Of a stretch of DNA of 64,000 bases, positions 32,031-45,450 are shown piece after piece; positions within the stretch are counted from its first letter, which is position 1, and each line of letters opens with the position of its first letter. Source of the DNA: an uncultured Oscillospiraceae bacterium (lineage in GTDB: Bacteria > Bacillota > Clostridia > Christensenellales > CAG-138). The notes under the pieces were generated by a model, which ran no database searches, was not told where the DNA came from, and worked only from the letters and a program-made list of their open reading frames with translations. The DNA is taken from the NCBI GenBank assembly GCA_964496795.1, contig CAZCAV010000004.1:4660-68659 (forward strand), in the 5' to 3' direction. The position numbers and the translations under genes were made by a program.

Positions 32031-33023
32031 TCAGGGAACGAGGCCGACCTCCTTGAGCCAGGCGGCAGCCACATCCTCGGGCTCCTCTTCCTCAACGTCC
32101 ACCTTGTAGTTGAGCGCCATCATGACCTCGTCGTTAATCAGCGGTGCAATGTCGTTCATCAGCTTCACGACCTCGGGATACTGTGCGGCAAAGTCCGCGC
32201 GGAAGCAGGAAACGGCATTATATGCAGGGAAATAGCTGAGGTCGTCCACCAGCAGCACCAGATCGAAGGCTTTGATGCGGGAGTCGGTGGCGAACACCAT
32301 GCCGACGTCGCCCTGCCCGTCCTTCAGCGCCTGGAACACAAGTCCCATATCCATCACGTTCAGATCCTCGCCAAAATCAATGCCATAGGCGTCGGAAAGG
32401 CCAAGCAGACCGTCCTCGCGGATCGTGAACTCATGGTCGCCGCAGAATATCAGCTCGCCCGGATGCTCGGTCATATAGGCGCCCAGCTCCGAATAGCTGG
32501 TAATGCCCAGCGTGGCAACCTCCTGCGTGACGACGAGGCCATAGGTATCGTTCATGGTCATCATGTCGCCCACGGTATACTTGCCCTCGGCCGCAAGCGC
32601 CTCCGCAACGGAGGTATAGAGCGCATCCTTGCCTCCCTCCGGGAACGCCGAATTGCCTAAAAAGGAGCCCCAGATGGTGCCGGTGTAATCCCAGTACACG
32701 TCAAAATCGCCCGAACCAAGCGCGTTCCAGCAAACGTCAGAGCCGGATACGTTGGTTTTATCCTCGCAGACATAGCCCTTGGATTCAAGATACTGGATCG
32801 TGATCTGTCCAAGAAGCAGCTGTTCCGTGAAGTCCTTGGAGCCGACCTTGATGACGTCCGGCTTGGCGACCTCTTCCTCGGCGGCGGGTTCTTCCGTAGC
32901 AGGCTCGGTCGCGGGCGCTTCCGCAGCAGGCTCGGCGGCGGGCGCTTCGACAGTCTTGGCGCATCCTGCGATGCAGGCCATGAGCAGCAGTACGCTCAGC
33001 AGAATAGTGAAAGTCTTTTTCAT
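32031..33023 (-). CDS. Quaternary-amine (glycine betaine/choline/carnitine type) ABC transporter substrate-binding lipoprotein
   Basis: The product has the lipoprotein signal LLLMACIAGC. It has OpuBC/OpuCC-like sequence KVGSKDFTEQLLLGQITIQYLESKGY. Confidence 0.8.
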   Translation of the reverse strand: MKKTFTILLSVLLLMACIAGCAKTVEAPAAEPAAEAPATEPATEEPAAEEEVAKPDVIKVGSKDFTEQLLLGQITIQYLESKGYVCEDKTNVSGSDVCWNALGSGDFDVYWDYTGTIWGSFLGNSAFPEGGKDALYTSVAEALAAEGKYTVGDMMTMNDTYGLVVTQEVATLGITSYSELGAYMTEHPGELIFCGDHEFTIREDGLLGLSDAYGIDFGEDLNVMDMGLVFQALKDGQGDVGMVFATDSRIKAFDLVLLVDDLSYFPAYNAVSCFRADFAAQYPEVVKLMNDIAPLINDEVMMALNYKVDVEEEEPEDVAAAWLKEVGLVP

Positions 33024-33086
33024 GGGTTCCCTCCTAATTTTAATTTGGCTGTATATTATGGGCGACGACGCCCATGGGCCACAGAT

Positions 33087-33815
33087 TCATTGGATGAGCT
33101 TTTTTTCCGCCATGCCCAGCAGGCTGTCAAGCACGAGGGCTAAAATCGTAGCGTATCCCGCGCCGAGCAGCATGATCTGATAGCGCATATAGTTCTTGCC
33201 CGCGATAATAAAATCGCCAAGTCCGCCCGCGCCGACAAAAGCCGCGATGATGGCGGTAGCCACATTGATGACGACCGCTGTGCGTATGCCGGCAAAAATG
33301 ACCGGCATGGCCAACGGGACCTCCACCCGAAACAGCAGCTGCAGCTTCGTCATGCCCATGCCGCGGCCGGCGTCGATGATGAAGGGGTCTACGCCGCGTA
33401 TGCCCGCGATCGTGTTGTTCAAGATCGGCAGCAGCGAATAGATCCACAGTGCAAATATCGCGGTTTTTGCGCCGATACCAAGCACCGAGAACATGATGGC
33501 TACGACCGCGAAGCTCGGAATGGTCTGTAATATGCTCACAAGCCCCACGACAGGCCCGCAAAGCGGTTTGAACAGCGGGCGCGTGAGCAGCAGTCCAAGC
33601 GGCACCGCCGTCACCACGGCCAGCGACGCGGAGATCACGATGATGTAGATGTGCTGCCACAGAGCATGCAGGAGCTTCTTCGTGCTGATGTATCTTGCGA
33701 CCGTTTGATCCATCGGATGGTTGATGACCCACCAGCCCCAGATAATGGCGATCACAACGAGCACAATCGGCAGACACCATTCATACCATGCGATTTTCTT
33801 GTTATTCTGCAACAT
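33087..33815 (-). CDS. Quaternary-amine ABC transporter permease
   Basis: The start is ATG 33815 (MLQNNKKIAWYEW), which overlaps the ATPase 3' end by 14 nt. The product is polytopic. Confidence 0.8.
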   Translation of the reverse strand: MLQNNKKIAWYEWCLPIVLVVIAIIWGWWVINHPMDQTVARYISTKKLLHALWQHIYIIVISASLAVVTAVPLGLLLTRPLFKPLCGPVVGLVSILQTIPSFAVVAIMFSVLGIGAKTAIFALWIYSLLPILNNTIAGIRGVDPFIIDAGRGMGMTKLQLLFRVEVPLAMPVIFAGIRTAVVINVATAIIAAFVGAGGLGDFIIAGKNYMRYQIMLLGAGYATILALVLDSLLGMAEKKLIQ

Positions 33816-34908
33816 GGCTGGCCCCCGTATCAAACAGCTCTGCCATGCCGATGAGCCGTTTCGCCTTCTTCTCCGCATCCACGATGAACACGACCTTTTC
33901 GTTGCGGGCGAACATCAGGCTCATGGCGTCGTACAGCGTCTGGTCCTCCTGTATCATGGCGTCCGTGTGCGTCAGGGCGGCGTCCACGTCCGCAGCGCTG
34001 CCAGGATGCGTACAGCCGGTCTCAATATAGCCAAGGGGATGGCCGTCGGCGTCCGTCACGCCGACAAAGGTATTCGTTTCGGCGGCCTTGAGTATCCGCT
34101 CCGTTTCCGCAATGCAAAAGAAGGGTTCGGAGCCGTTAGCCTCCGCGCAGGACATCAGAGAAAAGCGCTTGATGATGCGGTTCTGGCCGACAAGGCTTTC
34201 CACAAATTCGTTGGCTGGGTGCGTCAGTATCTCGTGCGGCGATCCGACCTGCGCAAGCCGTCCATACTGCATCACGGCGATCTTGTCGCCCATCTTGACC
34301 GCCTCGTCCATGTCGTGCGTGACAAAGACGATGGTCTTGTGCAGCTTTGCCTGGATATTGTTCAGAAACTCGCTCTGGAGGCGGCTTCTTGTGATCGGGT
34401 CCAGCGCGCCGAAGGGCTCGTCCATCAGCATGATCGGCGGATCGCCCGCCAGCGCGCGCGCAACGCCTACGCGCTGCTTCTGACCGCCGGAAAGCGACGA
34501 CGGCTTCTTTTTTGCATAGGCAGGGTCCAGATCCACCAGCCGCATCATCTCCGCGACCCGCGCGGCAATGCGCGCCTTGTCCCATTTCTTTTCGATCGGA
34601 ACCGTCGCGATGTTCTTCTCGATCGTATAATGGGGGAACAGGCCCGTCTCCTGGATCACATAACCGATATTGCGCCGAAGCTCAATGGGATCAAGAGCCA
34701 TGATATCCTGCCGGTTGACAAAAATCTTTCCGTCCGTAATGGGCACCAGCCGGTTGATCATGCGCATCGTGGTCGTCTTGCCGCAGCCAGACGCGCCGAT
34801 CAGCACGCATATCTCGCCTTCGTTGATGGTCAGATTCAAGTCGTTCACGACAGGCTTGTCGCTGCCCGGATAGGTTTTGACCAGATGCTCCATGCGAATC
34901 ATTTCCAT
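33802..34908 (-). CDS. Quaternary-amine ABC transporter ATP-binding protein with C-terminal CBS pair
   Basis: The product has Walker A GASGCGKTT, the signature LSGGQKQR, and a C-terminal ~120 aa CBS-like region, as in OpuA/OpuC ATPases. Confidence 0.9.
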   Translation of the reverse strand: MEMIRMEHLVKTYPGSDKPVVNDLNLTINEGEICVLIGASGCGKTTTMRMINRLVPITDGKIFVNRQDIMALDPIELRRNIGYVIQETGLFPHYTIEKNIATVPIEKKWDKARIAARVAEMMRLVDLDPAYAKKKPSSLSGGQKQRVGVARALAGDPPIMLMDEPFGALDPITRSRLQSEFLNNIQAKLHKTIVFVTHDMDEAVKMGDKIAVMQYGRLAQVGSPHEILTHPANEFVESLVGQNRIIKRFSLMSCAEANGSEPFFCIAETERILKAAETNTFVGVTDADGHPLGYIETGCTHPGSAADVDAALTHTDAMIQEDQTLYDAMSLMFARNEKVVFIVDAEKKAKRLIGMAELFDTGASHVAE

Positions 34909-34923: not shown

Positions 34924-35565
34924 TCAGGATATCCGTTTTTCAGATGCGCGCTGCACGATCTGCAGCAGCTTATCCACAATGATGGTCAGCAGCGCGATGA
35001 GTATGCCGGCCACCGCTACCATTTTCATATTGCCGCGGTTGATGCCCTGAAAGATGTACACGCCGAGCCCGCCCGCGCCGACGTACGCCGCGATGGCGCC
35101 TATGCCTATGCACAGCACGACGGCCGAGCGAATGCCCGCAAAAACGACCGGCAGCGCCAGCGGAAAGCGAACCCGCAGATTGATCTCCATTTCCGTCAGG
35201 CCCATCCCGCGCGCCGAATCGATCACTGCCGGATCGATGTTCGTCAGGCCCACATAGGTATTGCGTATGATCGGCAGCAATGAATAGATGACAAGGCCGA
35301 ATATAACGGGAGATTTATTCAGTCCCATGATCGGAACCAGGAACGAGAACAGCGCCAGGCTCGGCACCGTCATAAATATACTGGCAATGTACAGCACGAT
35401 GGTCGCGACCGCCTTATTGTAGGTGATCAGAAATCCGACGATCAGTCCGATCGCAATGGATATGGCCAGCGCGATGAGCACCAGCTCGCAATGCTCCCTG
35501 AGCATCATGAGTATCTTGTCGGATTTCTTCACAACAAAAGCGAAAAACTCCTGTATCTTTTCCAA
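34924..35565 (-). CDS. Quaternary-amine ABC transporter permease
   Basis: The product is 213 aa, polytopic, and paralogous to 33087..33815. Confidence 0.85.
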   Translation of the reverse strand: MEKIQEFFAFVVKKSDKILMMLREHCELVLIALAISIAIGLIVGFLITYNKAVATIVLYIASIFMTVPSLALFSFLVPIMGLNKSPVIFGLVIYSLLPIIRNTYVGLTNIDPAVIDSARGMGLTEMEINLRVRFPLALPVVFAGIRSAVVLCIGIGAIAAYVGAGGLGVYIFQGINRGNMKMVAVAGILIALLTIIVDKLLQIVQRASEKRIS

Positions 35566-35598: not shown

Positions 35599-37038
35599 TC
35601 AATACCGCTTGCTTGGGAATATGACGCCTTCGTTCATGATCCCGTTCGGATCGAATTGCCGTTTGAGCCCCTCAAGCAGCATATAGGCGCTGCCATGCTC
35701 CTGCGCCGTCCATTCCGCCCGCGCCTTGCCGATGCCGTGATGGTGCACCATGGAGCCGCCGCGCTTGAGCGTTTCCTCCACAATGATGCGGTTGATTGGC
35801 TCATGATACTTATGGATCTCCTCGGTAACGGACGCGTTGACATTGTAATAGTAGACGAAATACATGTTCGTGCCGTTGATATAGCTATGTGAGGAATGGC
35901 CCCCGCAGAGCGTGATATCCGGCACCTCCTCCGGTATGCGCTTCACGCAGGCCCTGTATATATTGGCGATTTCCGACCATCCGGCCGATATCTCCGTTGT
36001 AAAGCCCATGTTGTTCGTTTCCTTGATCTCTTCGATCTCCTCGGCGATCTTGGCGGGGTCCCAGTTGAGATTGTTGAACCAATGCTCGATATATTCCGCC
36101 TCCACCGGCCGCCCGCCGCCGGAAAGGACAATATCGTCTATGGCGCGTATGGTGGCCTCGGAGATCGGCATGGGGCCCTCGGTCACGAATATCAGCACGC
36201 AGTTTCCCGTTTCAAAATTCGAGAAATGATAATCGCCGTCCTGCACGTCGTAAAGTCTGGCCACGGAGGGGCGATACCCGTTTACCATGACCTCCCTGAG
36301 CATACGAAAGCCCGTTTCCATATCGTCTATCAGATACCCGCGCGTACGGTAGCTCTCCGGAAAGAAGCGATGGATCTTGAGCGTGACCTCGGTGATAAAG
36401 CACAGCGCGCCCTCGCTGCCGATGATGATATGCCGGATATCCGGCCCCGCCGCCCGGCGCGGCACGCTCTTGATGCGCGCGACCTCCCCGTTTGGGAACA
36501 CTGCCTCAAGGCCGGCGACCATGTCCTCTATGCCCCCGTACAGCGTGGAAAACTGTCCAATGCTGCGTGTGGCCACAAGTCCGCCAAGCTGCGCAAGCGG
36601 CTTGGACTGCGGCGAATGGCCCGTGGTATAGCCATGCTCCCGCAAAAAATCCTCCAGCGTTTCAAGCGGGCAGCCGCACTGCGCCGTCACCTGCATATTC
36701 TCCGGATCAAACAGGAGTATGCGGTTCATATCGGAGCCGTCCAGCACCACGCTGTCGGGCGCAAGCGTTTCCAGCCCGCCCTCGGTGGCGGACGCGCCCG
36801 TGCGCGGCACGCAATTGATCCCGTTTTTGTTCAGGTACCGCAGGATCGCGGACACCTGTTCCACAGAATCCGGACGCACCAGACAGGCGGGAACGGGGCG
36901 CGTGTATACGCCGTGTATCCACTGATACTTTCTGAAGCGATCCACGCTCGCCTGCCTGAGCACCTCTTCATCCGTTACGACCCGATCCTCCCCCACGAGG
37001 GCGACAAGGTCGACGACAATCTGTTCATGCTTTGTCAT
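35599..37038 (-). CDS. FAD-binding (PCMH-type) oxidoreductase, GlcD / alkyl-DHAP-synthase-like
   Basis: The track ORF is trimmed to ATG 37038 (MTKHEQIVVDLVALVG), preceded by AGGAG. The FAD-binding N-domain has PRTGASATEGG. Confidence 0.8.
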   Translation of the reverse strand: MTKHEQIVVDLVALVGEDRVVTDEEVLRQASVDRFRKYQWIHGVYTRPVPACLVRPDSVEQVSAILRYLNKNGINCVPRTGASATEGGLETLAPDSVVLDGSDMNRILLFDPENMQVTAQCGCPLETLEDFLREHGYTTGHSPQSKPLAQLGGLVATRSIGQFSTLYGGIEDMVAGLEAVFPNGEVARIKSVPRRAAGPDIRHIIIGSEGALCFITEVTLKIHRFFPESYRTRGYLIDDMETGFRMLREVMVNGYRPSVARLYDVQDGDYHFSNFETGNCVLIFVTEGPMPISEATIRAIDDIVLSGGGRPVEAEYIEHWFNNLNWDPAKIAEEIEEIKETNNMGFTTEISAGWSEIANIYRACVKRIPEEVPDITLCGGHSSHSYINGTNMYFVYYYNVNASVTEEIHKYHEPINRIIVEETLKRGGSMVHHHGIGKARAEWTAQEHGSAYMLLEGLKRQFDPNGIMNEGVIFPSKRY

Positions 37039-37073
37039 ACTGCATCTCCTGAATTTCATGATGGCGCCGGAGT

Positions 37074-37862
37074 TTATACATGGCCGTAATAATCCCTGTG
37101 ATTGACTGCAGAATACGCGTAATCCAGCAGCGTCCCCCAGCTGAATACGGGAAGCTCCACCGCGCGCTGCACCGCGCGCGCAAAGGGCTGCATGCCGGTA
37201 CATTCGAGCATGATGGCGCCGATATCCCGCTCTTTTTCCACAAAGCGGCGCGCACAGCTTACCATCTGCTCCTCCGCCCTGTCGTAATAGGCCTCCGGAC
37301 ACGCCGGACGTTTCTCCGGATTCCACAGGTTGTCAAATTCCGTTACGCCGTATTCGTCCTGCGCGCCGGCGATCACATACCGGCTCTTAGGATCGATCCC
37401 GACGTTTATCAGGTGCTGCGCGCTTAAAAACTGCTTCTGCGCGCAGATGATGCCCACGCGTTTTTCGGGGCCGATGACCTGCTGGATAAACGGCACCTGC
37501 AAAAGACTGGACATGAAAACCGGAACGTTCACCGCCGCCGCCACGTCCTTCTGAAAAAAGGCGAAATACCCGCATTCGGCGGCGACGGCACGGCAGCCCA
37601 GCCGTTCAAGCTTTCTGGCCGCGCGGACGACGGCCTCGCGGCACTGCGCGGGGTTCTTATCATACACAAGCGTCTGGTTCGTTACGCCCTCGGCAATTTC
37701 ATATTGTATCGGATAGGGAAAGGCGCTTGGGTTCCGTACATCGCCCGGAAAGCCCGGGTAGGCGTCGTTGAGTAAAATAATGCCCAGGCCCATGCCATAA
37801 CAAACATGATCCCCTCTGGTTCTGATATAGTTGATGCTGCGATCCCTGTCCTGCCAGTACAT
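37074..37862 (-). CDS. Asp/Glu/hydantoin-racemase superfamily protein
   Basis: The start is ATG 37862, preceded by GGAGG. The product has GIILLNDAYPGFPGDVRNPSAFPYPIQY and AIMLECTGM, recognised from memory of this family and not aligned. Confidence 0.6.
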   Translation of the reverse strand: MYWQDRDRSINYIRTRGDHVCYGMGLGIILLNDAYPGFPGDVRNPSAFPYPIQYEIAEGVTNQTLVYDKNPAQCREAVVRAARKLERLGCRAVAAECGYFAFFQKDVAAAVNVPVFMSSLLQVPFIQQVIGPEKRVGIICAQKQFLSAQHLINVGIDPKSRYVIAGAQDEYGVTEFDNLWNPEKRPACPEAYYDRAEEQMVSCARRFVEKERDIGAIMLECTGMQPFARAVQRAVELPVFSWGTLLDYAYSAVNHRDYYGHV

Positions 37863-37863
37863 G

Positions 37864-37913
37864 ATTGCCGACCTCCATATTATATTGCCGACCCGATGTC
37901 TTGATTGCCGAAC
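37864..37913. repeat. Three direct repeats ATTGCCGA(C/A)C phased exactly 20 bp apart in the divergent promoter region
   Basis: The copies are at 37864-37873 and 37884-37893 (both attgccgacc) and at 37904-37913 (attgccgaac). Confidence 0.9.
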
Positions 37914-37972
37914 ATTGTTGTGGTATACTGTCATCAAGCTTATAAATATTAATAGGAAACGGATGCGATACA

Positions 37973-38761
37973 ATGGATACTAAGGATACCGTCGTCACCG
38001 GCAGGAGCGCCGGCACTGAGCCTTCCGTGCAGTCCATCGAGCGGGCGGTCGCCATACTGCGCTGCTTCGAAAAGGGTTCCAAGCTTACGCTGACCGAGAT
38101 CTGCGCTGCGGTGGGTCTGCACAAATCCACCACCTACGGGATCGTTACGACGCTGAAAAACAGCGGTCTGCTGGATAAAAACGAGGAAACCGGCAAATAT
38201 CAGCTTGGAGTCGGCCTGTACAGGCTGGTAGCCAACGTGGAGCTGGATCTGCGCGACGTCTGCGTCCCGCATATTCGCAGTCTCTGTGAAACCACCGGCG
38301 AAACCGTGAATATGGTCGTTCCGGACGGAACGCATGTGATCTATATCGAAAAGCGCGAAAGCGCGCATTCGGTACGCATCAGTACCAGCATCGGAAAAAG
38401 ACTGCCCATGTACTGCACGGCGGTCGGCAAAGCCATACTTTCGTGCATGTCGCCCGAGGAGGCGTCCCTGCTGCTGGATCGAACCAGCCTTGTCCCCCAG
38501 ACGCGGTTTACGCTGACCGGAAAAGACGATATTCTGCGTCAGCTTGTCGAAGTACGGGAACGTGGCTATGCTTTGGATAGTGAAGAATTGGAATATGGCC
38601 TGGTATGCGTAGCCGTTCCCATTGTCAATGCGCACGGCGTTCCGATCGCCGCCTTGAGCTGCTCCGGCCCCATACAGCGGATGAGCGAGGAAAGGATCAA
38701 CGTCATTTCGCAGGAGCTGCTTGCGCACGCGCATGCCGTTTCCGCAGTGTTGCTGCATTGA
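37973..38761 (+). CDS. IclR-family transcriptional regulator
   Basis: The product has the HTH region LTLTEICAAVGLHKSTTYGIVTTL and a C-terminal effector domain. Confidence 0.85.
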   Translation: MDTKDTVVTGRSAGTEPSVQSIERAVAILRCFEKGSKLTLTEICAAVGLHKSTTYGIVTTLKNSGLLDKNEETGKYQLGVGLYRLVANVELDLRDVCVPHIRSLCETTGETVNMVVPDGTHVIYIEKRESAHSVRISTSIGKRLPMYCTAVGKAILSCMSPEEASLLLDRTSLVPQTRFTLTGKDDILRQLVEVRERGYALDSEELEYGLVCVAVPIVNAHGVPIAALSCSGPIQRMSEERINVISQELLAHAHAVSAVLLH

Positions 38762-38925: not shown

Positions 38926-38954
38926 TTGAACTGGCCGTCGGCACGCGCTATAAT
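38926..38954 (+). promoter_or_regulatory. Sigma-A-type promoter for the panB-mttB arm
   Basis: The elements are TTGAAC, a 17-nt spacer and TATAAT. Confidence 0.55.
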
Positions 38955-38977: not shown

Positions 38978-38994
38978 GTTCTGCATTACAGAAC
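38978..38994. promoter_or_regulatory. 17-bp palindrome GTTCTGCATTACAGAAC (operator candidate, copy 2)
   Basis: This copy matches copy 1 at 16 of 17 positions. It lies 24 nt downstream of the predicted -10. Confidence 0.5.
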
Positions 38995-39053: not shown

Positions 39054-39899
39054 ATGAAAAAATCAATTCTCGACTTCAATAAGATGAAGACCGCCGGAGA
39101 AAAGCTTACATGGATTACCGCCTATGACGCGCCCTTTGCTTCCTTCGCGGAGCAGGCCGGCATGGACATGATTCTTGTGGGCGATTCGCTCGGCATGGTG
39201 GTGCTTGGTTACGAAAGCACCATTCCCGTGACCATGGACGACTGCATCGCTCACTGCAAGGCGGTGCGCAGGGGCGCGCCCGGCACCTTTGTCGTAGGCG
39301 ATATGCCCTTTGGCTCCTATCAGGAATCCAGGGAGAGCGCGGTGCACAACGCCGTACGGTTTTTAAAGGAGGGCGGCTCGGACGCCGTCAAGCTTGAGGG
39401 AGGTGTGCGCGTGGCCGAGCAGATCCGCGCCATACGCGACGCCGGCGTGCTCGTCTGCGGGCACATCGGCTTAACGCCGCAAAGTTCGGGCGTGCTCGGC
39501 GGTCATAAAGCGCAGGGCCGCACCCTAGAAAGCGCGCGTGCCGTGATCGAGGACGCTCTGGCCGTAGAGAACGCCGGCGCCAATTTCCTGCTTGTGGAGG
39601 CTGTGCCGCCGGAGGTCGCCGGATTCATAACCAGAAAGCTGAAAATCCCCGTGTATTCCATCGGCGCCGGTGCGGAATGCGACGGCCAGCTGACCATTTT
39701 CGCGGACACGATCGGTCTGTTCCAGGCGTTTACCCCCAAATTCGTCAAAAAGTACTGCGAGATCGCGCCCATCGTGATCGACGCTTACAAGCAATACATT
39801 CGCGATATCCGCGAAGGAAGCTTTCCCGGCGAAGACAACGTCTATCATATCATAGGCGAGCGCGCCCCCTTTGAAGAGCTGTTTCGCGAGTACGAATAA
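39054..39899 (+). CDS. panB: 3-methyl-2-oxobutanoate hydroxymethyltransferase (PanB) homologue
   Basis: The start is ATG 39054, after CAGGAGG. The product has LTWITAYDAPFASFAEQAGMDMILVGDSLGMVVLGY and VVGDMPFGSYQ, typical of PanB. Confidence 0.8.
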   Translation: MKKSILDFNKMKTAGEKLTWITAYDAPFASFAEQAGMDMILVGDSLGMVVLGYESTIPVTMDDCIAHCKAVRRGAPGTFVVGDMPFGSYQESRESAVHNAVRFLKEGGSDAVKLEGGVRVAEQIRAIRDAGVLVCGHIGLTPQSSGVLGGHKAQGRTLESARAVIEDALAVENAGANFLLVEAVPPEVAGFITRKLKIPVYSIGAGAECDGQLTIFADTIGLFQAFTPKFVKKYCEIAPIVIDAYKQYIRDIREGSFPGEDNVYHIIGERAPFEELFREYE

Positions 39900-39931: not shown

Positions 39932-41143
39932 ATGACCAACATGGAATATCTCAAGGATAAGCCCATCGCCGTGCTTGGCGGAGGCAACGTGGCCAAGGCG
40001 ATCGCCGGCGACTGCGCGCTCGGCGGCGCGCGGGTCCGTATCTGCGACCTCATGCCCTTTGCAGCGAACTCGCTGCGTAACCTTGACAAGGCGGGCATTC
40101 GCTTCTACGGGGAGCAGATGAACCTCTACGGCTTCCAGCGCGAGGGCGTCGCTATGATGGACAAGGTGACCACGGAGGTTTCCGAAGCCGTCAAGGGCGC
40201 GGGCATCATCATCATTGGCACGCCCGTGTTCGGGCACCGTCCGTTCTTTGAAAGGCTTATTCCGCTGCTCGAGGACGGGCAGGTCGTTATGATATTCCCC
40301 GATAATTTTGGATCGCTGCTGCTGCATAAAATGATGCGCGAGGCGGGCTGCACCAAAAAAGTCATTATCGGCGGATGGTCCAGCTCCACCTACGGCAGCC
40401 GCATCGACATGGCCGGAAAGCTGCCCACCAACCGCGTCAAGGTCTATTACCGCGCCATCACGCTGCGCGGCGCGGCCATGCCCGCCTCCGATACGCCCGC
40501 TTTCATCGAAGCGTCCAGATATCTGCCCTCCTTCGACGCGGTCACCTTCGGCAACGGCCCCGTTGCGGCGGATACGGCGCTGGATACCGCGCTTTCCAAC
40601 GTCAATCCCGTGCTGCATTGCCCCGGCACCATACTCGGCATCTCCACGATGCAAAACTATGGCCGGATATTCGGCGACGACAAGAAAAAATTCTCCATCT
40701 ATTCCCACGCCTACTGCGAGGGGATTTCACAGGTGCAGTTCAGTTTCTATCAGGAGGAATGCGCGCTGGCCAAGGCTATGGGCGTCGGCATTCAGCCCTA
40801 TGAAAAGGAGCATTTCTTCTCTCGCGAAAACGTTCTTGGGCAGGAGTATATGGGTCTGGATTACGTCATTCCGTTCGACGAGCAGGATCCCATTCAGTAC
40901 GGTACGGGCCCGTTCACCATGGAAAACCGCTACATCACCGAGGATATCCCCACGGGCTGCAATCTGTACAGTCAGCTCGGCCGTCAATACGGCGTGAGGA
41001 CGCCCGTCATCGACTGCATGATCACGCTCGCGGAAGCGATACTGGATCGCGATCTGGTCAGCACGGGCTATACGCTCAAGGATCTCGGCATCGACAATAT
41101 GAGCAAGGACCGTTTGAACGAATATCTGCGCACGGGCAAATAA
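39932..41143 (+). CDS. NAD(P)-dependent opine (octopine/nopaline) dehydrogenase-family protein
   Basis: The 403-aa product has the Rossmann start KPIAVLGGGNVAKAIAGDCALGG. Its overall layout resembles the opine-DH family by eye. Confidence 0.6.
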   Translation: MTNMEYLKDKPIAVLGGGNVAKAIAGDCALGGARVRICDLMPFAANSLRNLDKAGIRFYGEQMNLYGFQREGVAMMDKVTTEVSEAVKGAGIIIIGTPVFGHRPFFERLIPLLEDGQVVMIFPDNFGSLLLHKMMREAGCTKKVIIGGWSSSTYGSRIDMAGKLPTNRVKVYYRAITLRGAAMPASDTPAFIEASRYLPSFDAVTFGNGPVAADTALDTALSNVNPVLHCPGTILGISTMQNYGRIFGDDKKKFSIYSHAYCEGISQVQFSFYQEECALAKAMGVGIQPYEKEHFFSRENVLGQEYMGLDYVIPFDEQDPIQYGTGPFTMENRYITEDIPTGCNLYSQLGRQYGVRTPVIDCMITLAEAILDRDLVSTGYTLKDLGIDNMSKDRLNEYLRTGK

Positions 41144-41153: not shown

Positions 41154-42587
41154 ATGAAGGATCGCAAGGAATATGACGTCGAACGCAATATCGAATTCAA
41201 TATCCTCACGCCGGACATGAAGGAAAAGATCCATCAGGGCGCGCTGCAGATACTGGAAGAGATCGGCATGAAGATCTCCGGCGACAGAACGCTCCAAAAG
41301 CTAAGAGAGCGGGGCGTAACGCCCGACGCCGACGGACTCGTGCACATTCCCCGTTCCCTGTTCTTCTGGGCGCTTGAAAAGGCGCCCAAGGAGCTGACCC
41401 TGTATGACATGGACGGCAAGCCGCGTATGCAGATCGACAGCCGAAACCGGGTATATTTCGGCACCCATAACGATATGGCCGAGATCCTCGACTATAAAAC
41501 CAATACGGCCAGGCCGATGCTGCTGTCCGATATCCAGACCATGTGCAAGGTGGCCAGCAACTGCGAGAATATCGATTTTGTTCTCTCCGTCGGACTGGTC
41601 CAGGACGTGGACCCGAAGATCCAATCCCAGATGTGCTTTATCGAGTCCTGCAAATATATGGAGAAGGTCATCAACTTCTCCACCAACGACGTGGACGCTC
41701 TGCAGGAGATCATCGACATCGCGGCCGTGCTCGCAGGCGGGCATGACAAGCTGGCTCAAAAACCGTTCATCTTCAACTATTGCGAGCCGATCCCGCCGCT
41801 CACGCATCCCTTTGAGAGCACGGAAAAGCTGTTCGTCGCGTCCTCGAACGGAATCCCCTCCGTCTACATGCCCTACTGCATGATGGGCGGCACTTCGCCG
41901 CTCGACCGGCCTACGACGCTGGCGCAGTGCTTTGCGGAGATCCTCTGCGGCGTGGTCATCTCCCAGCTTGCCCGCGAGGGCGCGCCCTTCATCGCCGGCT
42001 CCATGCCGTCGGTCATCGACATGAAAACCACTGTGGCCAGCTATGCCGCTCCGGAATTCCATCTCATGGTCGCCGCCTCCTCGGAGATGGCGGATTTCTA
42101 CGGCCTGCCGTTTTACGGAACCTGCGGCTGCAGCGACGTGCGCACCTTCGATCAGCAATCCGCCGGAGAGATATCCTATCAGATCCTGTCCACGCTTCTG
42201 AGCAAGGCCAACATCATTCACGATATGGGCCTGCACGATCATTGTATCAACGTCAGCCCCGCGGCGGTCGTCTGGGCCAACGATCTGATCAACGGCTATA
42301 AAAGCTATGTACGCGGCGTGCAGGGCGAGGTGGACATATCTCTGATCAAGGACGTAGGGCCTGCGGGAAACTATCTGTCGGAGGATAACACGCTGGAACG
42401 GTTCCGCGAGGTATGGTATCCCGAGCTGGAAACGCGCCGCCGGCAAAACCTCAACTTCTCCGACCTGTGCGATCGGATCGGCGCGCGCATCGACCGGATG
42501 CTGGAGGAGAATCCCGGTTCCGGCCTCAGCGCAGATCAGCTCGCCTTCCTGGATCAAAAAGCGAAAGAATTCTTATCGCGCGTATAG
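41154..42587 (+). CDS. MttB-superfamily (trimethylamine-methyltransferase-like) protein, non-pyrrolysine
   Basis: The 477-aa frame is uninterrupted. The N-terminus (ILTPDMKEKIHQGALQILEEIGMKI) is typical of the family. The RBS is AAGGAGG. Confidence 0.8.
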   Translation: MKDRKEYDVERNIEFNILTPDMKEKIHQGALQILEEIGMKISGDRTLQKLRERGVTPDADGLVHIPRSLFFWALEKAPKELTLYDMDGKPRMQIDSRNRVYFGTHNDMAEILDYKTNTARPMLLSDIQTMCKVASNCENIDFVLSVGLVQDVDPKIQSQMCFIESCKYMEKVINFSTNDVDALQEIIDIAAVLAGGHDKLAQKPFIFNYCEPIPPLTHPFESTEKLFVASSNGIPSVYMPYCMMGGTSPLDRPTTLAQCFAEILCGVVISQLAREGAPFIAGSMPSVIDMKTTVASYAAPEFHLMVAASSEMADFYGLPFYGTCGCSDVRTFDQQSAGEISYQILSTLLSKANIIHDMGLHDHCINVSPAAVVWANDLINGYKSYVRGVQGEVDISLIKDVGPAGNYLSEDNTLERFREVWYPELETRRRQNLNFSDLCDRIGARIDRMLEENPGSGLSADQLAFLDQKAKEFLSRV

Positions 42588-42597: not shown

Positions 42598-44025
42598 ATG
42601 GTATGCGATGAAAAAGCCATAGACCTCATACACGAAAACAGCCTTCGCCTGCTCAGCGGGATCGGGATGGCCTTTCAGGCGGAATCCGCGCTGGATACCC
42701 TGCGTGCAGGCGGCGTGGAGGTGCGTGGAAACCGTGCATTCTTTACGGAAAAACAGGTCATGGACGCCGTGAACGCCGCAAAAAAGGCGTTCACGGTGTA
42801 CGCGCGCAACCCCGCATATAACGTGCGCGTCAATACGGAGGAGCTTTACGTTATGCCCGGTTACGGCAGTCCAAGCATCTGCGAACCGGACGGGACGCTC
42901 CGTCCGTCCGGCTTTGACGATTTTCTGAAGCTGGCCACCATCGTGCAGCAGAGCGACGTCTTTTCCATCAACGGCGGCATTCTGGCGCAGCCCAACGATA
43001 TCGAAGCGACCATAGCGGCCGAAGCGATGGTGTACGCCACGCTGAAGATGTCCGACAAGGCGCTGTTCTCCGTTTGCGGAGGCAGGCTGCAGGCAGAGCG
43101 CATTATGGAGCTGATGAAGATCGTTTTCGGCGGCTCCATTCAGGAGCTGCCATGCTCGTTCAATCTGATTTCCACGCTCAGCCCCATGGCACTGGCAAGA
43201 AACGCGATCGAGACCATGGAGGTGTGCGCCCGAAACGGCCAGCCTCTGGTGCTTGCGCCCGGGCCCATGGCCGGCGGCACGGGCCCCGTTTCTCTTGCCG
43301 GCAACGTATCGCTCTGCAACGCGGAGATACTGGGCGCCAACGTATACGCGCAGCTGATCCGGCCGGAAACGCCCATAATATACGGATTTGCAGCGACAGT
43401 GAGCAATATGCGGGATATGAGCTGCTCCAACGCCTGTCCCGGCTTTGTCAAGGAATCGCGCTTCGGCGCGCTGCTGGCCAAAAAATACGGCTTTGCGTGC
43501 CGTAGCGGCGGCGGCATGTCCGACGCCGGCGGCCTTACGGCGCAGGCCGGCGTAGAATCCGCGATGAGTCTGTTTGAGTCGTTCAGCATGAAAGCCAACT
43601 TTATCATGCACGCGGCCGGTTCCATGAGCTCCTTCAACAGCGTCAGCTTTGAAAAGCTCATTCTGGATATCGAGACCATCGGGCGCATGCGCTACTATTT
43701 CAGCGAGCTGCCTGTGGACGAGGAAGCGCTGGGCTTCGACGCCATCCGCGAGGCCGTTGAGGGCGACGGCACCTTCATGCTGCTTGAGCATACGCTCGAT
43801 CGCTGCCGCAAGGATCCCTGGCAGGCCGAGGTATCGCAGCACGGCCGCTGCAAGGGCGATCCGAATCAGGAGCTGTACGGCTCCATCCGCAGGAAGCTGG
43901 ACGAATTGCTGGGGAGCTATCGCCGCCCGCCCATGGACGCGGCGGTCGAAGGCGCGCTCGACGCATATATGCTCTCGATCGGCATGAAGCAGACCGATAT
44001 GGCAAAATGTGATATACTGATGTAA
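42598..44025 (+). CDS. Second MttB-superfamily protein, non-pyrrolysine paralogue
   Basis: The 475-aa frame is uninterrupted. The product starts KAIDLIHENSLRLLSGIGMAF. Confidence 0.8.
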   Translation: MVCDEKAIDLIHENSLRLLSGIGMAFQAESALDTLRAGGVEVRGNRAFFTEKQVMDAVNAAKKAFTVYARNPAYNVRVNTEELYVMPGYGSPSICEPDGTLRPSGFDDFLKLATIVQQSDVFSINGGILAQPNDIEATIAAEAMVYATLKMSDKALFSVCGGRLQAERIMELMKIVFGGSIQELPCSFNLISTLSPMALARNAIETMEVCARNGQPLVLAPGPMAGGTGPVSLAGNVSLCNAEILGANVYAQLIRPETPIIYGFAATVSNMRDMSCSNACPGFVKESRFGALLAKKYGFACRSGGGMSDAGGLTAQAGVESAMSLFESFSMKANFIMHAAGSMSSFNSVSFEKLILDIETIGRMRYYFSELPVDEEALGFDAIREAVEGDGTFMLLEHTLDRCRKDPWQAEVSQHGRCKGDPNQELYGSIRRKLDELLGSYRRPPMDAAVEGALDAYMLSIGMKQTDMAKCDILM

Positions 44026-44049
44026 AGTATGCGATAAAGAGGGCTCTGC

Positions 44050-45450
44050 ATGGAACCGCTTCGCCCCATACCCGCGCCCGTTCTTACCCTGCTTGACGCC
44101 GCCGTTTCGGGAAAGCTGCTGTGCGGCGAAAGCATTCAGGACGATTATTCTCACGACGAAATGCCGCTGTACGGCTCGTACCGGCCCGACGCGCTTGTGT
44201 TTCCGCAAAGCACCGCCGAGGTCGCCGCCGTTATGCGCGTCTGCTCTGAGGCAAACATTCCGGTTACGCCGCGCGGCGCGGGCACCGGCCTTGCCGGCGG
44301 CGCCGCGCCCGTCCGCGGGGGCGTCGTGCTTTCCCTTGAGCGCATGAACGCCGCGCCCGTGCTGGATGAAGCCAAGCTCTCCGTTCGTGTGCAGGCCGGC
44401 GTGCTTTTGAAGGACATCCAAAGCGTCTGCGCGCAGAAGGGCCTGTTCTATCCTCCCGATCCCGGCGAAAAAAACGCCACGATCGGCGGCAATGCGGCCA
44501 CAAACGCCGGCGGCATGCGCGCTCTGACATACGGGAGCACCCGCAGCTATATTCGGGCGATGACCGTTGTGCTACCGGACGGTCGGATATTGCAGCTTGG
44601 CGCCGACACTAAGAAAAACAGCACCGGCTATAATCTGCTGCAGCTCATCGTCGGCTCCGAGGGCACGCTGGGAATCATCACTGAGCTTACGCTTGCGCTC
44701 CTTCCGCAGCCCGGGAACGCAGTATGGCTCATAGCGCCCTTCGCCACCGACGCGGACTGCTTCGCAGCAGCCCTCAAGCTGCTTCACACAGCGCCCCAGC
44801 CGGAAACGCTCGAATACGCGGAAGCCGGCATCCTGCGTTCCGCCGAAAAACGGTTGGGACAAAGCATAGTGGATTCAAGCGCCGCCGCCTGCCTCATGGT
44901 CGGATACAGGGAATGCGGCTGCGTTCTATCCCCTTTTTTAGCTAAGACCGGGGAAACGCTCCTGTCCATGGGCGCCACAGATGTTCTATTGGCGGACGCC
45001 CCGCAGAGCGCGGCCCGTTTGCAAACCTTGCGGGACGGCTTTTTGGACGCTCTTCGAGCGGAAGCCGTCTGGATCGATGAAGCAGACGTCGCCATGCCGC
45101 TCGACAAGACCGGAGAGCTTCTTTCTCTGGCGCGCCGGCTTGGACGGGATCGTGCGCTGAGCGTTCGCGCATTCGGCCATATCGGCGACGGCAATCTGCA
45201 TATCTATCTGTGCGGAGACGGCGAGCGCGCTGATTTTCTTGCGCGCACGCAAAGCGTGATGCAGGCGCTTTATGCCGAGGCTGCAAAGCGCGGCGGGCTC
45301 GTTTCCGGCGAACACGGCGTCGGCTTTATCAAGCGGCCTTCTTTCCTCGCGCATACCGATCCCACCGCCCTGGAATTCATGCGCGCCGTCAAAGCCGTCT
45401 TTGACCCCGGCGGTATACTCAACCCCGGAAAAATCATCAGCAAAGAATAG
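44050..45450 (+). CDS. FAD-linked oxidase (GlcD / D-lactate-dehydrogenase-like)
   Basis: The product has VTPRGAGTGLAGGA and [24 protein letters not shown], plus the C-terminal SGEHGVG. Confidence 0.85.
   Translation: MEPLRPIPAPVLTLLDAAVSGKLLCGESIQDDYSHDEMPLYGSYRPDALVFPQSTAEVAAVMRVCSEANIPVTPRGAGTGLAGGAAPVRGGVVLSLERMNAAPVLDEAKLSVRVQAGVLLKDIQSVCAQKGLFYPPDPGEKNATIGGNAATNAGGMRALTYGSTRSYIRAMTVVLPDGRILQLGADTKKNSTGYNLLQLIVGSEGTLGIITELTLALLPQPGNAVWLIAPFATDADCFAAALKLLHTAPQPETLEYAEAGILRSAEKRLGQSIVDSSAAACLMVGYRECGCVLSPFLAKTGETLLSMGATDVLLADAPQSAARLQTLRDGFLDALRAEAVWIDEADVAMPLDKTGELLSLARRLGRDRALSVRAFGHIGDGNLHIYLCGDGERADFLARTQSVMQALYAEAAKRGGLVSGEHGVGFIKRPSFLAHTDPTALEFMRAVKAVFDPGGILNPGKIISKE

Follow-up and report, generated by a model that had tools for sequence, protein, structure and literature searches.

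A conserved module of MttB-superfamily methyltransferases, an opine-dehydrogenase-family enzyme, a racemase and a PanB-type enzyme in anaerobes, with a possible role in betaine degradation

Five genes in the 64-kb stretch of DNA that we analyzed (the window) form an undescribed module present in ~200 anaerobe species. They encode an opine-dehydrogenase-family protein (OpDH), a two-cysteine racemase/epimerase (RacL), a PanB-type enzyme (PanBL), and two MttB-superfamily proteins (MttBa and MttBb). The module probably takes the degradation of a methylated amino acid (betaine) far past the one demethylation known to date. Based on observed gene content, conserved linkage, residue patterns, folds, and operator sites, the locus may be one instance of a widespread catabolic module, so far undescribed, with which strict anaerobes break down a chiral N-methylated amino-acid betaine, a reading to which we assign a probability of roughly 45%.

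The original prediction had described a set of 12 genes, and all of them were found with the coordinates and spacing that it gave:

32031–33023, minus strand: OpuAC-type substrate-binding lipoprotein of the ABC importer (PF04069, 204 bits; lipobox IAGC)
33087–33815, minus strand: ABC permease 2 (PF00528, 77 bits)
33802–34908, minus strand: ABC ATPase, ProV/OpuCA type, with a degenerate CBS-like tail (PF00005)
34924–35565, minus strand: ABC permease 1 (PF00528, 84.5 bits)
35599–37038, minus strand: FADox1, FAD-linked oxidase/dehydrogenase (PF01565 and PF02913, FAD_binding_4/FAD-oxidase_C)
37074–37862, minus strand: RacL, two-cysteine racemase/epimerase of the Asp/Glu/hydantoin racemase superfamily, core gene
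37863–37972: divergent racL/iclR spacer, 110 nt, with three direct repeats
37973–38761, plus strand: IclR-family regulator (PF09339 and PF01614)
38774–38790: predicted operator 1, 17-bp palindrome GTTCTGCATTATAGAAC
38926–38954, plus strand: sigma-70-like promoter of the panB operon (TTGAAC-N17-TATAAT)
38978–38994: predicted operator 2, GTTCTGCATTACAGAAC
39054–39899, plus strand: PanBL, PanB-type (ketopantoate hydroxymethyltransferase) enzyme, core gene (PF02548, 351 bits)
39932–41143, plus strand: OpDH, opine-dehydrogenase-family, putative NAD-dependent imine-forming dehydrogenase, anchor gene of the module (PF02317, Octopine_DH)
41154–42587, plus strand: MttBa, member of a new MttB-superfamily clade, core gene (PF06253, 204 bits)
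42598–44025, plus strand: MttBb, MtgB-like, predicted quaternary-amine:corrinoid methyltransferase, variable front-end gene (PF06253, 326 bits)
44050–45450, plus strand: GlcDL, LctD-like, predicted FAD-dependent 2-hydroxy-acid dehydrogenase, last gene of the operon (PF01565, PF02913)

The tight spacing noted for the plus arm (10 to 35 nt after panB) was measured as 32, 10, 10, and 24 nt, and a terminator-like hairpin lies 3' of GlcDL at 45473–45488. On the minus arm, the first 14 nt of permease 2 (start MLQNNKK) lie within the end of the ATPase gene, and FADox1 has an alternative start at 37059. The importer had been called a complete OpuC-type system; its permeases, ATPase, and lipoprotein are all present, but the ATPase has no more than a weak CBS-domain match (E = 0.007; 17 bits, cut-off 24). 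Against TIGR01186 (proV), the ATPase scores 320.5 bits, slightly below the cut-off of 326.6. Among solved structures, the lipoprotein comes closest to ProX of Archaeoglobus fulgidus (126 bits), a protein with glycine betaine and proline betaine as ligands (PMC13080624). The 64-kb window encodes no corrinoid protein, MT2, or activase. The non-pyrrolysine MttB proteins of Eubacterium limosum (MtpB, MtcB, MtyB, and MthB) lie beside a transporter and a regulator, the same layout as in the window, and are encoded apart from MtqC, MtqA, and RamQ (PMC8604678); the absence of a corrinoid protein gene is thus not anomalous.

OpDH relatives that are 62–88% identical give 199 genome hits in Firmicutes, Synergistales, Deltaproteobacteria, and spirochaetes. 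Over the 45 loci with full flanks (complete loci), an MttBa ortholog lies beside OpDH in 41, RacL accompanies it in 38, a second, Arg-keeping MttB in 36, and PanBL, mostly adjacent, in 35–36; a transporter is nearby in 42. A corrinoid protein gene occurs in 26 of the 45 and a pterin-type MT2 gene in 15. Because it recurs across phyla, this gene combination is far beyond chance. The accessory genes are not bystanders: OpDH, RacL, and PanBL co-occur with the MttBa ortholog in 78–91% of complete loci from several phyla, and sigma-54 promoters are shared: in Acetobacterium and Eubacterium loci, exact matches (TGGCAC-N5-TTGC) stand 5' of OpDH-PanBL, racL-MttB, and BCCT. The two FAD oxidases, which had been counted as part of the set, are lineage-specific extras outside it. 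GlcD-like genes occur in 3 of the 45 loci, as weak paralogs only, and FADox1 recurs once among 82 related loci (L086; 61% identity), where it likewise adjoins an OpuC-type importer. The accessory set had been thought to have no published precedent, and our literature search returned no match combining MttB with an opine dehydrogenase.

The original prediction had asked where the two MttB proteins fall among characterized members; they are not equivalent, as MttBb is MtgB-like and MttBa represents a new clade in which the acid-binding arginine is missing. Both open reading frames are uninterrupted, with no in-frame UAG. The best PDB match of MttBb is Desulfitobacterium hafniense MtgB (277 bits), and all four glycine-betaine-binding residues of MtgB (Y97, R312, H348, and F356) are retained. 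MttBb shares fold, family, and betaine-binding residues with the MtgB/MtgC/MtgA systems of D. hafniense and Acetobacterium woodii; it also adjoins a betaine importer, and genes for a corrinoid protein and a pterin-type MT2 occur in many related loci. However, MttBb and MtgB are only 34% identical, the known Mtg system removes one methyl and ends at dimethylglycine, and it lacks counterparts of the opine dehydrogenase, the racemase, PanB, and the second, divergent MttB, whereas the window has no corrinoid protein or MT2. Across lineages, the pocket signature of this partner MttB varies (YRHF, SRQF, VRHF, SRQY, or YRHW), which is awkward if one substrate feeds a conserved core.

AlphaFold2 modeled MttBa with a pLDDT of 89 and a TM-score of 0.87–0.89 to MtgB and pyrrolysine (Pyl)-dependent MttB. 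At the positions of MtgB Y97/R312/H348/F356, MttBa has N/Y/H/C; throughout its clade, Tyr or Phe takes the place of R312, Y97 is not kept, and Cys invariably replaces F356. R312 is kept in every characterized non-Pyl member (PMC13080624), including the four E. limosum proteins, each of which acts once on an acidic quaternary amine, whereas MttBa lacks both the Arg and the cage. Residues H105, C210, E211, H218, H303, T323, H356, D357, D362, H363, and C364 are invariant in MttBa and D107 nearly so; clade-invariant residues map to MtgB glycine-betaine contact positions and to the C-termini of barrel strands. Of 57 clade members, 45 have Cys at the pyrrolysine position, and the remainder have Thr, Ser, or Ala. 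Methanosarcina barkeri Pyl-dependent MttB (7xcl) resembles MttBa in fold (TM 0.89) and in its Tyr at the MtgB Arg312 position, and both proteins would use amines without a permanent charge; MttBa differs in having no UAG codon and its own invariant His/Asp/Cys set. Judged by these residues, MttBa is a member of a new MttB clade that combines the MttB fold with a remodeled His/Asp/Cys pocket without Arg or aromatic cage, unlike the pocket of any characterized member. The residue pattern suggests a putative metal site. Known zinc sites in corrinoid methyltransferases serve O- or S-linked substrates, and we know of no corrinoid methyltransferase that activates an amine by means of a metal.

The structure closest to OpDH is N-(1-D-carboxyethyl)-L-norvaline dehydrogenase (CENDH, 1bg6; 89 bits). 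OpDH residues His229, Arg333, and Asp338 are invariant and align with the 1bg6 motifs NAVMH and RYFFED, so that the opine-dehydrogenase His-Arg-Asp triad is retained, together with Asp39 following strand beta-2. OpDH shares Pfam family and triad with CENDH and octopine dehydrogenase; opine-type chemistry would reversibly form or cleave, with NAD(P), a secondary amine on the alpha-carbon of a 2-oxo acid, and the resulting center would be D-configured. It differs from these enzymes in its low score, its tight, separate anaerobe clade, and its catabolic corrinoid-methyltransferase context. Clustering at 50% reduces this clade to about one representative, and the next relatives are at 39–45%.

RacL matches PRK07475 (NCBIfam, 274 bits) and Asp_Glu_race (32.5 bits), with invariant Cys97 (AAECGYF) and Cys221 (LECTGMQPF). 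Its AlphaFold2 model (pLDDT 77) most resembles hydantoin, aspartate, and allantoin racemases in the PDB; orthologs are 66–88% identical and adjoin MttBa in 37 of the 45 complete loci. In Thermacetogenium-type loci, an OCD/mu-crystallin protein, which may be an L-specific imine reductase, takes the place of RacL next to OpDH; this swap is in line with a need for both enantiomers to arrive at the imine. GlcDL is closest to A. woodii LctD (7qh2, 341 bits).

PanBL scores 317 bits against TIGR00222 (cut-off 208), is 46% identical to Burkholderia PanB, and retains every PanB motif (GDSLG, DxPF, VKLEGG, HxGLTPQ, E181, and IGAG). It differs from PanB in its regulated catabolic operon and, in relatives, its FTHFS neighbor: 8 nt separate FTHFS from PanBL in locus L057. 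In MttB-free relatives, OpDH adjoins FTHFS-FchA-FolD-FocA, formate channel included (L030), and the OpDH/PanBL pair occurs with TRAP importers and formate-forming folate enzymes. No panC, panD, or panE was found in any locus with annotated neighbor genes. The missing pan genes, the catabolic operon, and the FTHFS adjacency suggest that PanBL runs in reverse and releases a C1 unit from a related 2-oxo acid.

The 110-nt control region between racL and iclR had been predicted with its exact length and position. It contains three direct repeats, ATTGCCGA(C/A), 20 bp apart (37864, 37884, and 37904), and a promoter-like TTGATT-17-TATACT with an extended -10 at 37901–37929, pointing to iclR. It is not the sole control region, because the 292-nt gap between iclR and panB contains a promoter and both predicted operators. 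The promoter matches 10 of 12 consensus positions, a consensus match only. The operator motif, GTTCT-N7-AGAAC, is paired here and also 5' of panB in loci L006–L011 and L013; the arms of operator 1 are perfectly palindromic, and the observed motif count was reached in 0 of 100 shuffles. Operator 2 starts 24 nt 3' of the -10 box, a position that would fit repression by transcription block. IclR, whose best NCBIfam match is BhcR (below its cut-off), may be pictured as a repressor of the panB-OpDH-MttBa-MttBb-GlcDL operon acting through both palindromes. Its proposed control of both arms was not supported: no copy of the motif was found in the 110-nt spacer on the racL arm.

We propose the following substrate class, reactions, step order, and metal site for the module. 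The OpuC-type importer would bring in an alpha-betaine, and MttBb, with its MtgB cation-pi cage and carboxylate-binding Arg, would move the first methyl to a Co(I) corrinoid protein encoded elsewhere. MttBa would take the next methyl off the resulting tertiary amine; its putative metal site could chelate the amino acid and polarize the nitrogen, substituting for a permanent charge or pyrrolysine. RacL would then turn the alpha-carbon from L to D, and OpDH would use NAD+ to oxidize the D-configured secondary amine at the C-alpha-N bond, giving an imine that would hydrolyze to a 2-oxo acid and methylamine or, from a cyclic imino acid, to an amino-oxo acid. On the 2-oxo acid, PanBL would apply Mg-enolate and folate chemistry, most likely releasing a terminal hydroxymethyl as 5,10-methylene-THF; a homoserine-betaine-type substrate would pass through 4-hydroxy-2-oxobutanoate to pyruvate. 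In the source lineage only, GlcDL and FADox1 could interconvert the resulting 2-oxo and 2-hydroxy acids. E. limosum MthK, which prepares choline, is a precedent for an accessory substrate-preparing enzyme, although the E. limosum MttB loci are not described with OpDH, RacL, or PanB. The pathway sketched in the original prediction thus survives in its betaine import, N-demethylation, racemization, and C-N cleavage; its FAD oxidases fall outside the conserved set, and its dual-arm IclR control is not supported.

Several observations count against this pathway. PanBL is so canonical that it could simply synthesize ketopantoate, and E. coli PanB has been reported not to accept pyruvate. PanBL is missing within 10 kb in ~20% of complete loci, and the racL arm has no IclR operator. 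A. woodii and E. limosum, though carriers of the module, reportedly stop at dimethylglycine (from glycine betaine) and N-methylproline (from proline betaine).

The strongest alternative, though still unlikely, is an imino-acid substrate: proline betaine, or a betaine of hydroxyproline or pipecolate. Its two N-methyls would be removed by the two MttB proteins, RacL would be a proline or hydroxyproline 2-epimerase, and OpDH would be a D-proline/D-hydroxyproline dehydrogenase or pyrroline-2-carboxylate reductase. This would mirror the aerobic proline- and hydroxyproline-betaine pathway, which uses the HpbD epimerase, Rieske and flavin demethylases, and D-hydroxyproline dehydrogenase. The shared logic is import, two N-demethylations, 2-epimerization, and D-imino acid dehydrogenation to a cyclic imine; however, every aerobic enzyme is from another family, and the module needs no oxygen. 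Corrinoid methyl transfer would stand in for the oxygenase and flavin steps; the enolase-type epimerase and the flavoenzyme would give way to a two-Cys racemase and an NAD-dependent opine-type dehydrogenase, respectively, and a PanB-type step would be added. Proline betaine has exactly two N-methyls and the module two MttB genes, the importer's binding protein is closest to the proline-betaine-binding ProX, OCD/mu-crystallin genes adjoin OpDH, and in A. woodii and Adiutrix the module is flanked by HcnBC-type or proline-dehydrogenase-like genes. A heterodimeric AcnX dehydratase shares operons with OpDH and a RacL paralog in three MttB-free loci; this may point to an imino acid of the hydroxyproline type and away from a homoserine-type chain. 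Characterized bacterial AcnX types dehydrate cis-3-hydroxy-L-proline to pyrroline-2-carboxylate, but subclasses IIc–IIf have no known function, so the 3-hydroxyproline link is insecure (PMC8184944). An imino-acid substrate would also leave PanBL without a role and the FTHFS-FolD-FocA linkage unexplained, and MttBb has the glycine-betaine-type aromatic pair that is reportedly missing from MtpB.

It is less probable again that the His/Cys site of MttBa works like the zinc sites of MtaB, MT2, and MetH on an S- or O-linked methyl or a methyl acceptor. Candidates would be S-methylmethionine or methionine (to homocysteine), a DMSP-type sulfonium, or a thiol for methylation, and a homocysteine- or homoserine-like skeleton would then go to RacL, OpDH, and PanBL. 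The invariant C210-E211, H363-C364, and H356-D357 pairs speak for this, and the corrinoid methyltransferases known to have His/Cys/Glu-rich pockets all act on O- or S-substrates. Sulfonium osmolytes are also among the cargo of BCCT and OpuC transporters, and PanB-type C3-C4 cleavage would fit a C4 amino-acid skeleton bearing a heteroatom at C4. However, the OpDH triad speaks for a secondary amine and not a primary amino acid, sulfur-metabolism genes were not seen in the loci, and the partner MttB and binding protein resemble N-betaine types.

We consider it improbable that PanBL and OpDH, the latter as a non-orthologous ketopantoate reductase, make pantoate for vitamin B5 and merely hitchhike with an ordinary betaine methyltransferase operon. 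PanBL does exceed the equivalog cut-off with all catalytic residues retained, and OpDH belongs to the broad fold class of ketopantoate reductase, with weak ApbA matches in some orthologs. Yet OpDH carries the opine triad instead of reductase-type residues, the pair is controlled, along with transporters, by catabolic sigma-54 or IclR systems, the other pan genes are missing from annotated neighborhoods, and the MttB-free loci place the pair with TRAP importers and formate-forming enzymes. Least probable is an ordinary MtgB-type glycine-betaine demethylation locus with unrelated neighbors: the full MtgB binding motif of MttBb and the glycine-betaine-type importer would fit, but as a full account it is refuted by the linkage statistics over complete loci, glycine betaine is achiral and so gives RacL no task, and A. 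woodii has a separate glycine-betaine locus.

ORF listing and profile searches identified every gene that the original prediction had named, on a minus arm running from racL to an importer and a plus arm running from iclR to a GlcD-like oxidase gene.

Genes of the two arms, each identified as an ORF and by profile search, with domains and scores in brackets
37074-37862, minus strand, two-cysteine racemase-like protein RacL
35599-37038, minus strand, FAD-linked oxidase FADox1
34924-35565, minus strand, permease
33802-34908, minus strand, ProV-type ATPase
33087-33815, minus strand, permease
32031-33023, minus strand, OpuAC lipoprotein
37973-38761, plus strand, IclR (HTH_IclR and IclR_C domains)
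39054-39899, plus strand, PanB homologue PanBL
39932-41143, plus strand, Octopine_DH family protein OpDH (PF02317, 101 bits)
41154-42587, plus strand, MttB-superfamily protein MttBa (PF06253, 204 bits)
42598-44025, plus strand, MttB-superfamily protein MttBb (PF06253, 326 bits)
44050-45450, plus strand, GlcD-like oxidase GlcDL

The racL-iclR spacer is 110 nt long, and the gaps on the plus arm 3' of panB are 32, 10, 10, and 24 nt. An Rfam scan of the whole window detected no element, including no cobalamin or THF riboswitch. The locus has one other recorded copy, on a 15-kb contig from run SRR8925725. The window DNA is 57% G+C, compared with 34-52% in the Lachnospiraceae loci that carry the closest proteins, and the DNA therefore comes from a different member of the Clostridia.

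Both mttB ORFs are uninterrupted, with no in-frame UAG or other stop codon, and their products are 24% identical to each other. A pyrrolysine-type MttB (TMA methyltransferase) was ruled out: in addition to the lack of UAG, MttBa has Cys and MttBb has Met at the position aligned with pyrrolysine, and the two proteins scored 249 and 174 bits against TIGR02369, the only MttB model in NCBIfam, which has a cut-off of 525. In MtgB, glycine betaine is gripped by Y97 and F356 via cation-pi contacts, and its carboxylate is held by R312 and H348 (PMC13080624). R312 is kept in all characterized non-pyrrolysine members (MtgB, MtpB, MtcB, MtyB, and MthB), whose substrates are acidic quaternary amines and in which this residue salt-bridges the acid group; the aromatic pair Y97/F356 is MtgB-specific, and the four residues together are a minimum set that is insufficient for specificity (PMC13080624). 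Like MtgB, to which it aligned with 34% identity (277 bits), MttBb keeps all four residues based on alignment to 9yce. The partner MttB proteins of other lineages keep R312, and the remaining positions vary (SRQF, VRHF, SRQY, YRHW, and others).

MttBa is an MttB-fold protein that stands outside this acidic quaternary-amine group, with neither Arg312 nor the aromatic pair. Its AF2 model (pLDDT 89) superimposes on MtgB and on the pyrrolysine-type MttB, with TM scores of 0.87-0.89 to 2qne, 9yce, and 7xcl. At the MtgB positions Y97/R312/H348/F356, the signature is (N/S/A)-(Y/F)-H-C in MttBa and in its 56 orthologues, which are 44-80% identical: Asn, Ser, or Ala at the first; Tyr (51/57) or Phe (6/57) at the second, where Tyr is shared with the pyrrolysine-type MttB; and an invariant Cys at the fourth. 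Residues that are specific to the clade and invariant or nearly so are H105 and D107, which flank the Y97 position, and C210-E211, H218, H303, T323, H356-D357, and D362-H363-C364. In the model, these residues are placed at the C-terminal ends of the barrel strands, the catalytic face. The pattern suggests that the aromatic cage and Arg were rebuilt into a His/Asp/Cys pocket in MttBa that may form a metal site. The Cys at the pyrrolysine position was rejected as an essential catalytic substitute, as it is found in only 45 of the 57 clade members.

A third MttB clade (28-32% identical to MttBa; signature P-W/F-H-G, read as PWHG or PFHG) adjoins OpDH in eight of the OpDH-bearing loci that we fetched from other genomes (L055, L056, L066, L079, L083, L084, L086, and L088). 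These loci come from Thermacetogenium, Syntrophomonadaceae, and related Bacillota; they often lack RacL and sometimes have an OCD/mu-crystallin gene. In Thermacetogenium and Syntrophomonadaceae, the clade replaces or accompanies MttBa. The arrangement appears to be a further version of the module.

The 64-kb window lacks genes for a corrinoid protein, MT2, and activase; when the A. woodii corrinoid protein, URO-D-type MT2, and CobW served as tblastn queries, the window gave no match. A RACo-type activase is encoded in one related locus (L089). In E. limosum, MtqC, MtqA, and RamQ are encoded apart from the MttB genes (PMC8604678); the window is similar in having no corrinoid protein gene.

OpDH aligns over its full length with N-(1-D-carboxyethyl)-L-norvaline dehydrogenase (CENDH, 1bg6), in which the NAVMH and RYFFED motifs are the counterparts of its His229 (NPVLH), Arg333, and Asp338 (RY..ED). 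The His-Arg-Asp triad, catalytic in CENDH and octopine dehydrogenase, is invariant in 18 orthologues, and this triad and the PF02317 match place OpDH, as judged from sequence, in the opine dehydrogenase family. When sequences are clustered at 50% identity, about one representative of its clade is left, and the nearest proteins beyond it are 39-45% identical; OpDH therefore belongs to a tight, isolated clade.

RacL scored 32.5 bits against PF01177 (cut-off 31). A Foldseek search matched its model to hydantoin, aspartate, and allantoin racemases with probability 1.0 and TM scores of about 0.6; there was no solved structure among its sequence relatives. Cys97 and Cys221 are invariant and lie in EC(G/T) motifs, and two such cysteines are the mark of two-thiol racemases. 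The predicted fold and the two cysteines fit the Asp/Glu/hydantoin racemase superfamily. In Thermacetogenium-type loci, an OCD/mu-crystallin protein takes the place of RacL and adjoins OpDH. We read this protein as an L-specific imine reductase that would pair with a D-specific opine-type enzyme much as a racemase does, which suggests that both enantiomers are funneled to the imine or 2-oxo acid.

PanBL scored 317 bits against TIGR00222 (equivalog cut-off 208) and is 46% identical to Burkholderia PanB. The PanB catalytic residues D45, S46, D84, K112, E114, H136, and E181 (E. coli numbering) are invariant in 50 module copies, and the only clade-specific changes relative to canonical PanB (A83G, L85M, F97V, V152A, and V179L) are conservative. 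Based on these residues, its chemistry is almost certainly that of a Mg-enolate and methylene-THF on a small 2-oxo acid. A substrate call from sequence was ruled out by the conservative nature of all clade-specific changes.

The OpDH search returned 1480 relatives, and the best 120 were all at least 64% identical. Those among the best 120 with an organism name came from Lachnospiraceae, Acetobacterium, Eubacteriaceae, Negativicutes, Dehalobacterium, Ca. Formimonas, Syntrophaceticus, Synergistales, and Deltaproteobacteria, and Sporomusa was among the carriers in later searches. Carriers of the module include acetogens, sulfate reducers, syntrophs, Synergistales, and termite-gut and mouse-gut bacteria; the neighborhoods in A. 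woodii, Ca. Formimonas warabiya, and mouse-gut Lachnospiraceae combine OpDH, a PanB homologue, two MTTB proteins, and a racemase-like gene. We then scanned genomes with OpDH, one genome per species, which gave 199 matches; the best 80 loci were fetched, and their ORFs were labeled by BLAST and unsupervised clustering.

Components were counted in the 45 loci with at least 7 kb on each side of OpDH. An MttBa orthologue was present in 41/45, RacL in 38/45, an Arg-type second MttB in 36/45, and PanBL in 35-36/45; OpDH-MttBa-RacL therefore forms the conserved core, which PanBL usually joins. A transporter of any kind occurred in 42 of the 45 (BCCT 23, LIV-type ABC 14, OpuC-type 4, TRAP 1), and the front end of transporter plus quaternary-amine-type MttB varies between loci. 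Corrinoid protein (26/45), pterin-type MT2 (15/45), sigma-54 activator (33/45), and IclR (6/45) made up the other counts. The two FAD oxidases had been proposed as pathway members; a GlcD-like oxidase occurred in 3/45 loci and FADox1 was found again only in L086, and both are local additions. In the Eubacterium callanderi locus L033, two corrinoid proteins and two MttB proteins of the Arg type (signature YRHY) accompany RacL, OpDH, and PanBL; it is the sole complete locus having RacL without MttBa.

That the locus type is unmatched in the literature held up in full-text searches, in which we found no paper linking MttB with an opine dehydrogenase, PanB, or a RacL-type racemase. An octopine dehydrogenase entry was not found in the proteome tables of E. 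limosum grown on gamma-butyrobetaine and lactate. NCBIfam has no model for OpDH and labels RacL only as "hypothetical protein PRK07475." The parts of the module come from known families, and we found no published description of the combination.

The importer had been predicted as a complete OpuC-type system with a CBS-domain ATPase; the binding protein, two permeases, and ATPase core were identified, and the CBS match was weak (E 0.007). The ATPase scored 320.5 bits against TIGR01186 (cut-off 326.6). The closest relative of the OpuAC binding protein is A. fulgidus ProX, which binds glycine betaine and proline betaine (PMC13080624), and the window protein points only to ligands of the glycine betaine/proline betaine type. 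For GlcDL, the nearest match is LctD from the lactate dehydrogenase/Etf complex of A. woodii, a likeness that suggests a possible 2-hydroxy/2-oxo acid interconversion at the end of the route. Directly 3' of the importer arm (27043-31949, minus strand) are genes for an MFS_2 transporter, a short-chain dehydrogenase, an FGGY kinase, and a 421-residue ETF-like protein in which the ETF domain is combined with ETF_alpha; this last protein could be a partner of the LctD-like GlcDL.

Exactly two copies of the 17-bp palindrome GTTCTGCATTAYAGAAC occur in the window, at 38774 and 38978, a result reached by 0/100 shuffles, and they bracket a TTGAAC-N17-TATAAT promoter 5' of panB. The same motif, GTTCT-N7-AGAAC, recurs as a pair 5' of panB in L006-L011 and L013, all of which have IclR; it is absent from the other loci, and in L006 it additionally lies 5' of an extra BCCT-MttB operon. 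In these IclR-bearing relatives, racL and iclR are co-transcribed from the GTTCT-N7-AGAAC region; in the window, iclR is inverted relative to them. Control of the plus operon by IclR via putative palindromic operators is well supported by these motifs. A single IclR control region for both arms, as originally proposed, is contradicted by the 110-nt spacer, which contains no copy of the palindrome even at two mismatches, and IclR control of the importer arm is thus not supported. The spacer instead contains three direct repeats, ATTGCCGA(C/A), exactly 20 bp apart (37864-37912), of which one overlaps the -35 box of a putative iclR promoter and one stops four bases from the racL start codon; a second regulator may bind at these repeats. 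The motif ATTGCCGAC was not enriched across the window (31 observed vs 22 expected). Sequences that match the sigma-54 promoter exactly lie 5' of three units in the Acetobacterium and Eubacterium loci, namely OpDH-PanBL, the racL-MttB operon, and the BCCT gene, which supports co-regulation of the module parts in these species.

The strongest clue to the back end of the pathway comes from relatives that have no MttB. Seven such loci contain OpDH, then a RacL paralogue (33-37% identical), then a TRAP transporter; TRAP transporters import carboxylates. In Synergistales locus L057, the order is RpiR-OpDH-Rac2-DctPQM, a 167-codon ORF, and FTHFS-PanBL, with a gap of only 8 nt between FTHFS and PanBL, and the PDB relatives of its TRAP binding protein are weak (70 bits or less). 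In L030, OpDH-TRAP lies directly 3' of genes for FTHFS, a cyclohydrolase, FolD, and a formate channel. The presence of FTHFS, FolD, and a formate channel in MttB-free loci therefore ties the OpDH/PanBL pathway to folate-bound C1 that is oxidized to formate, which fits PanBL working in the C1-releasing direction. A heterodimeric AcnX dehydratase is encoded in three MttB-free loci and an OCD/mu-crystallin protein in some. The AcnX large- and small-subunit genes (L036/L090, 11346-13837; L043, 4738-7226; L058, 141-1879) are, in three lineages, in the same operon as the RacL paralogue and beside OpDH. We did not accept these neighbors as proof of a 3-hydroxyproline pathway, as several bacterial heterodimeric AcnX subclasses are without known function (PMC8184944).

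The most far-reaching reading, at a probability of about 0.3, is that MttBa founds a pyrrolysine-independent class of corrinoid methyltransferases that demethylates non-quaternary N-methyl amino acids via a His/Asp/Cys metal site and, with RacL, OpDH, and PanBL, allows complete anaerobic degradation of a betaine. The account that we favor is a sequence of steps. After betaine import, MttBb would demethylate the quaternary amine and MttBa the resulting tertiary amine; RacL would epimerize the product, OpDH would carry out an opine-type oxidation to a 2-oxo acid (plus methylamine), and PanBL would release methylene-THF in a PanB-type reaction. A homoserine-betaine-type substrate would use every enzyme, with N-methylhomoserine converted to 4-hydroxy-2-oxobutanoate and then to pyruvate plus C1, and our proposal of such a compound is a guess.

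The main rival is an imino-acid version with proline, hydroxyproline, or pipecolate betaine as the substrate, which accounts for the two methyl groups and for the AcnX, OCD, and HcnBC-like neighbors; however, it leaves PanBL and the folate genes unexplained. A sulfur or oxygen substrate, for which the putative metal site of MttBa offers a place, is less likely: the opine-type triad of OpDH points to a secondary amine, genes of sulfur metabolism were absent from the loci, and the partner MttB and the binding protein resemble those for N-betaines. It is also less likely that PanBL and OpDH serve vitamin B5 synthesis; PanBL passes the PanB equivalog cut-off, but there is no panC, panD, or panE in the window or in related loci with annotated genes, where the context is catabolic. 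A plain glycine-betaine locus would suit MttBb and the importer and is less likely, as the neighboring genes are conserved with MttBa across phyla.

If complete degradation with the help of an MttBa metal site is correct, a betaine would yield two methyl-THF and one methylene-THF along with methylamine and a central 2-oxo acid, in contrast to the single demethylation of every characterized MttB system. To our knowledge, the characterized non-pyrrolysine systems all take off one methyl group and excrete the tertiary amine; we know of no enzymology for anaerobic steps beyond, for example, dimethylglycine or N-methylproline, or of uncharged-amine demethylation other than by pyrrolysine enzymes. 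MttBa may be a new catalytic solution for uncharged-amine demethylation, and the module is a testable candidate both for the missing tertiary-amine chemistry in anaerobes and for a new route by which betaines would enter central metabolism through NAD- and folate-linked steps. It bears on the gut turnover of dietary betaines that compete with trimethylamine formation, on methylamine supply to methanogens, and on the annotation of hundreds of proteins as "trimethylamine methyltransferase family," "octopine dehydrogenase," or "PanB."

Four other regions of the window deserve mention. A PfkB/KdgK-like sugar kinase gene (45538-46559, minus strand) is broken into two ORFs that lie in different frames, an N-terminal one of 90 codons and a C-terminal one of 239; the same split was called on the independent contig L001, and its cause is probably either a frameshift that made the gene a pseudogene or an error in sequencing. 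An ORF at 55152-56204 (plus strand) has FAD-oxidase_C only, without FAD_binding_4, and shares 38% identity with GlcDL across 303 residues; with a stop codon just 5' and the ackA start 73 nt off, it is probably a truncated GlcDL paralogue. An 822-residue ORF (21435-23903, plus strand) joins AraC-type ligand-binding and HTH domains to a full glycoside hydrolase family 39 domain, an unusual fusion of regulator and enzyme. Between 46000 and 56000, G+C content is 49-53%, compared with 57-61% in the rest of the window, and this stretch may have been acquired separately as a block; it has genes for acetate kinase, an AllG/AllF-like oxamate carbamoyltransferase, an IlvD/EDD-family dehydratase, and proteins of the FAD_binding_2 family and the metallo-beta-lactamase fold.
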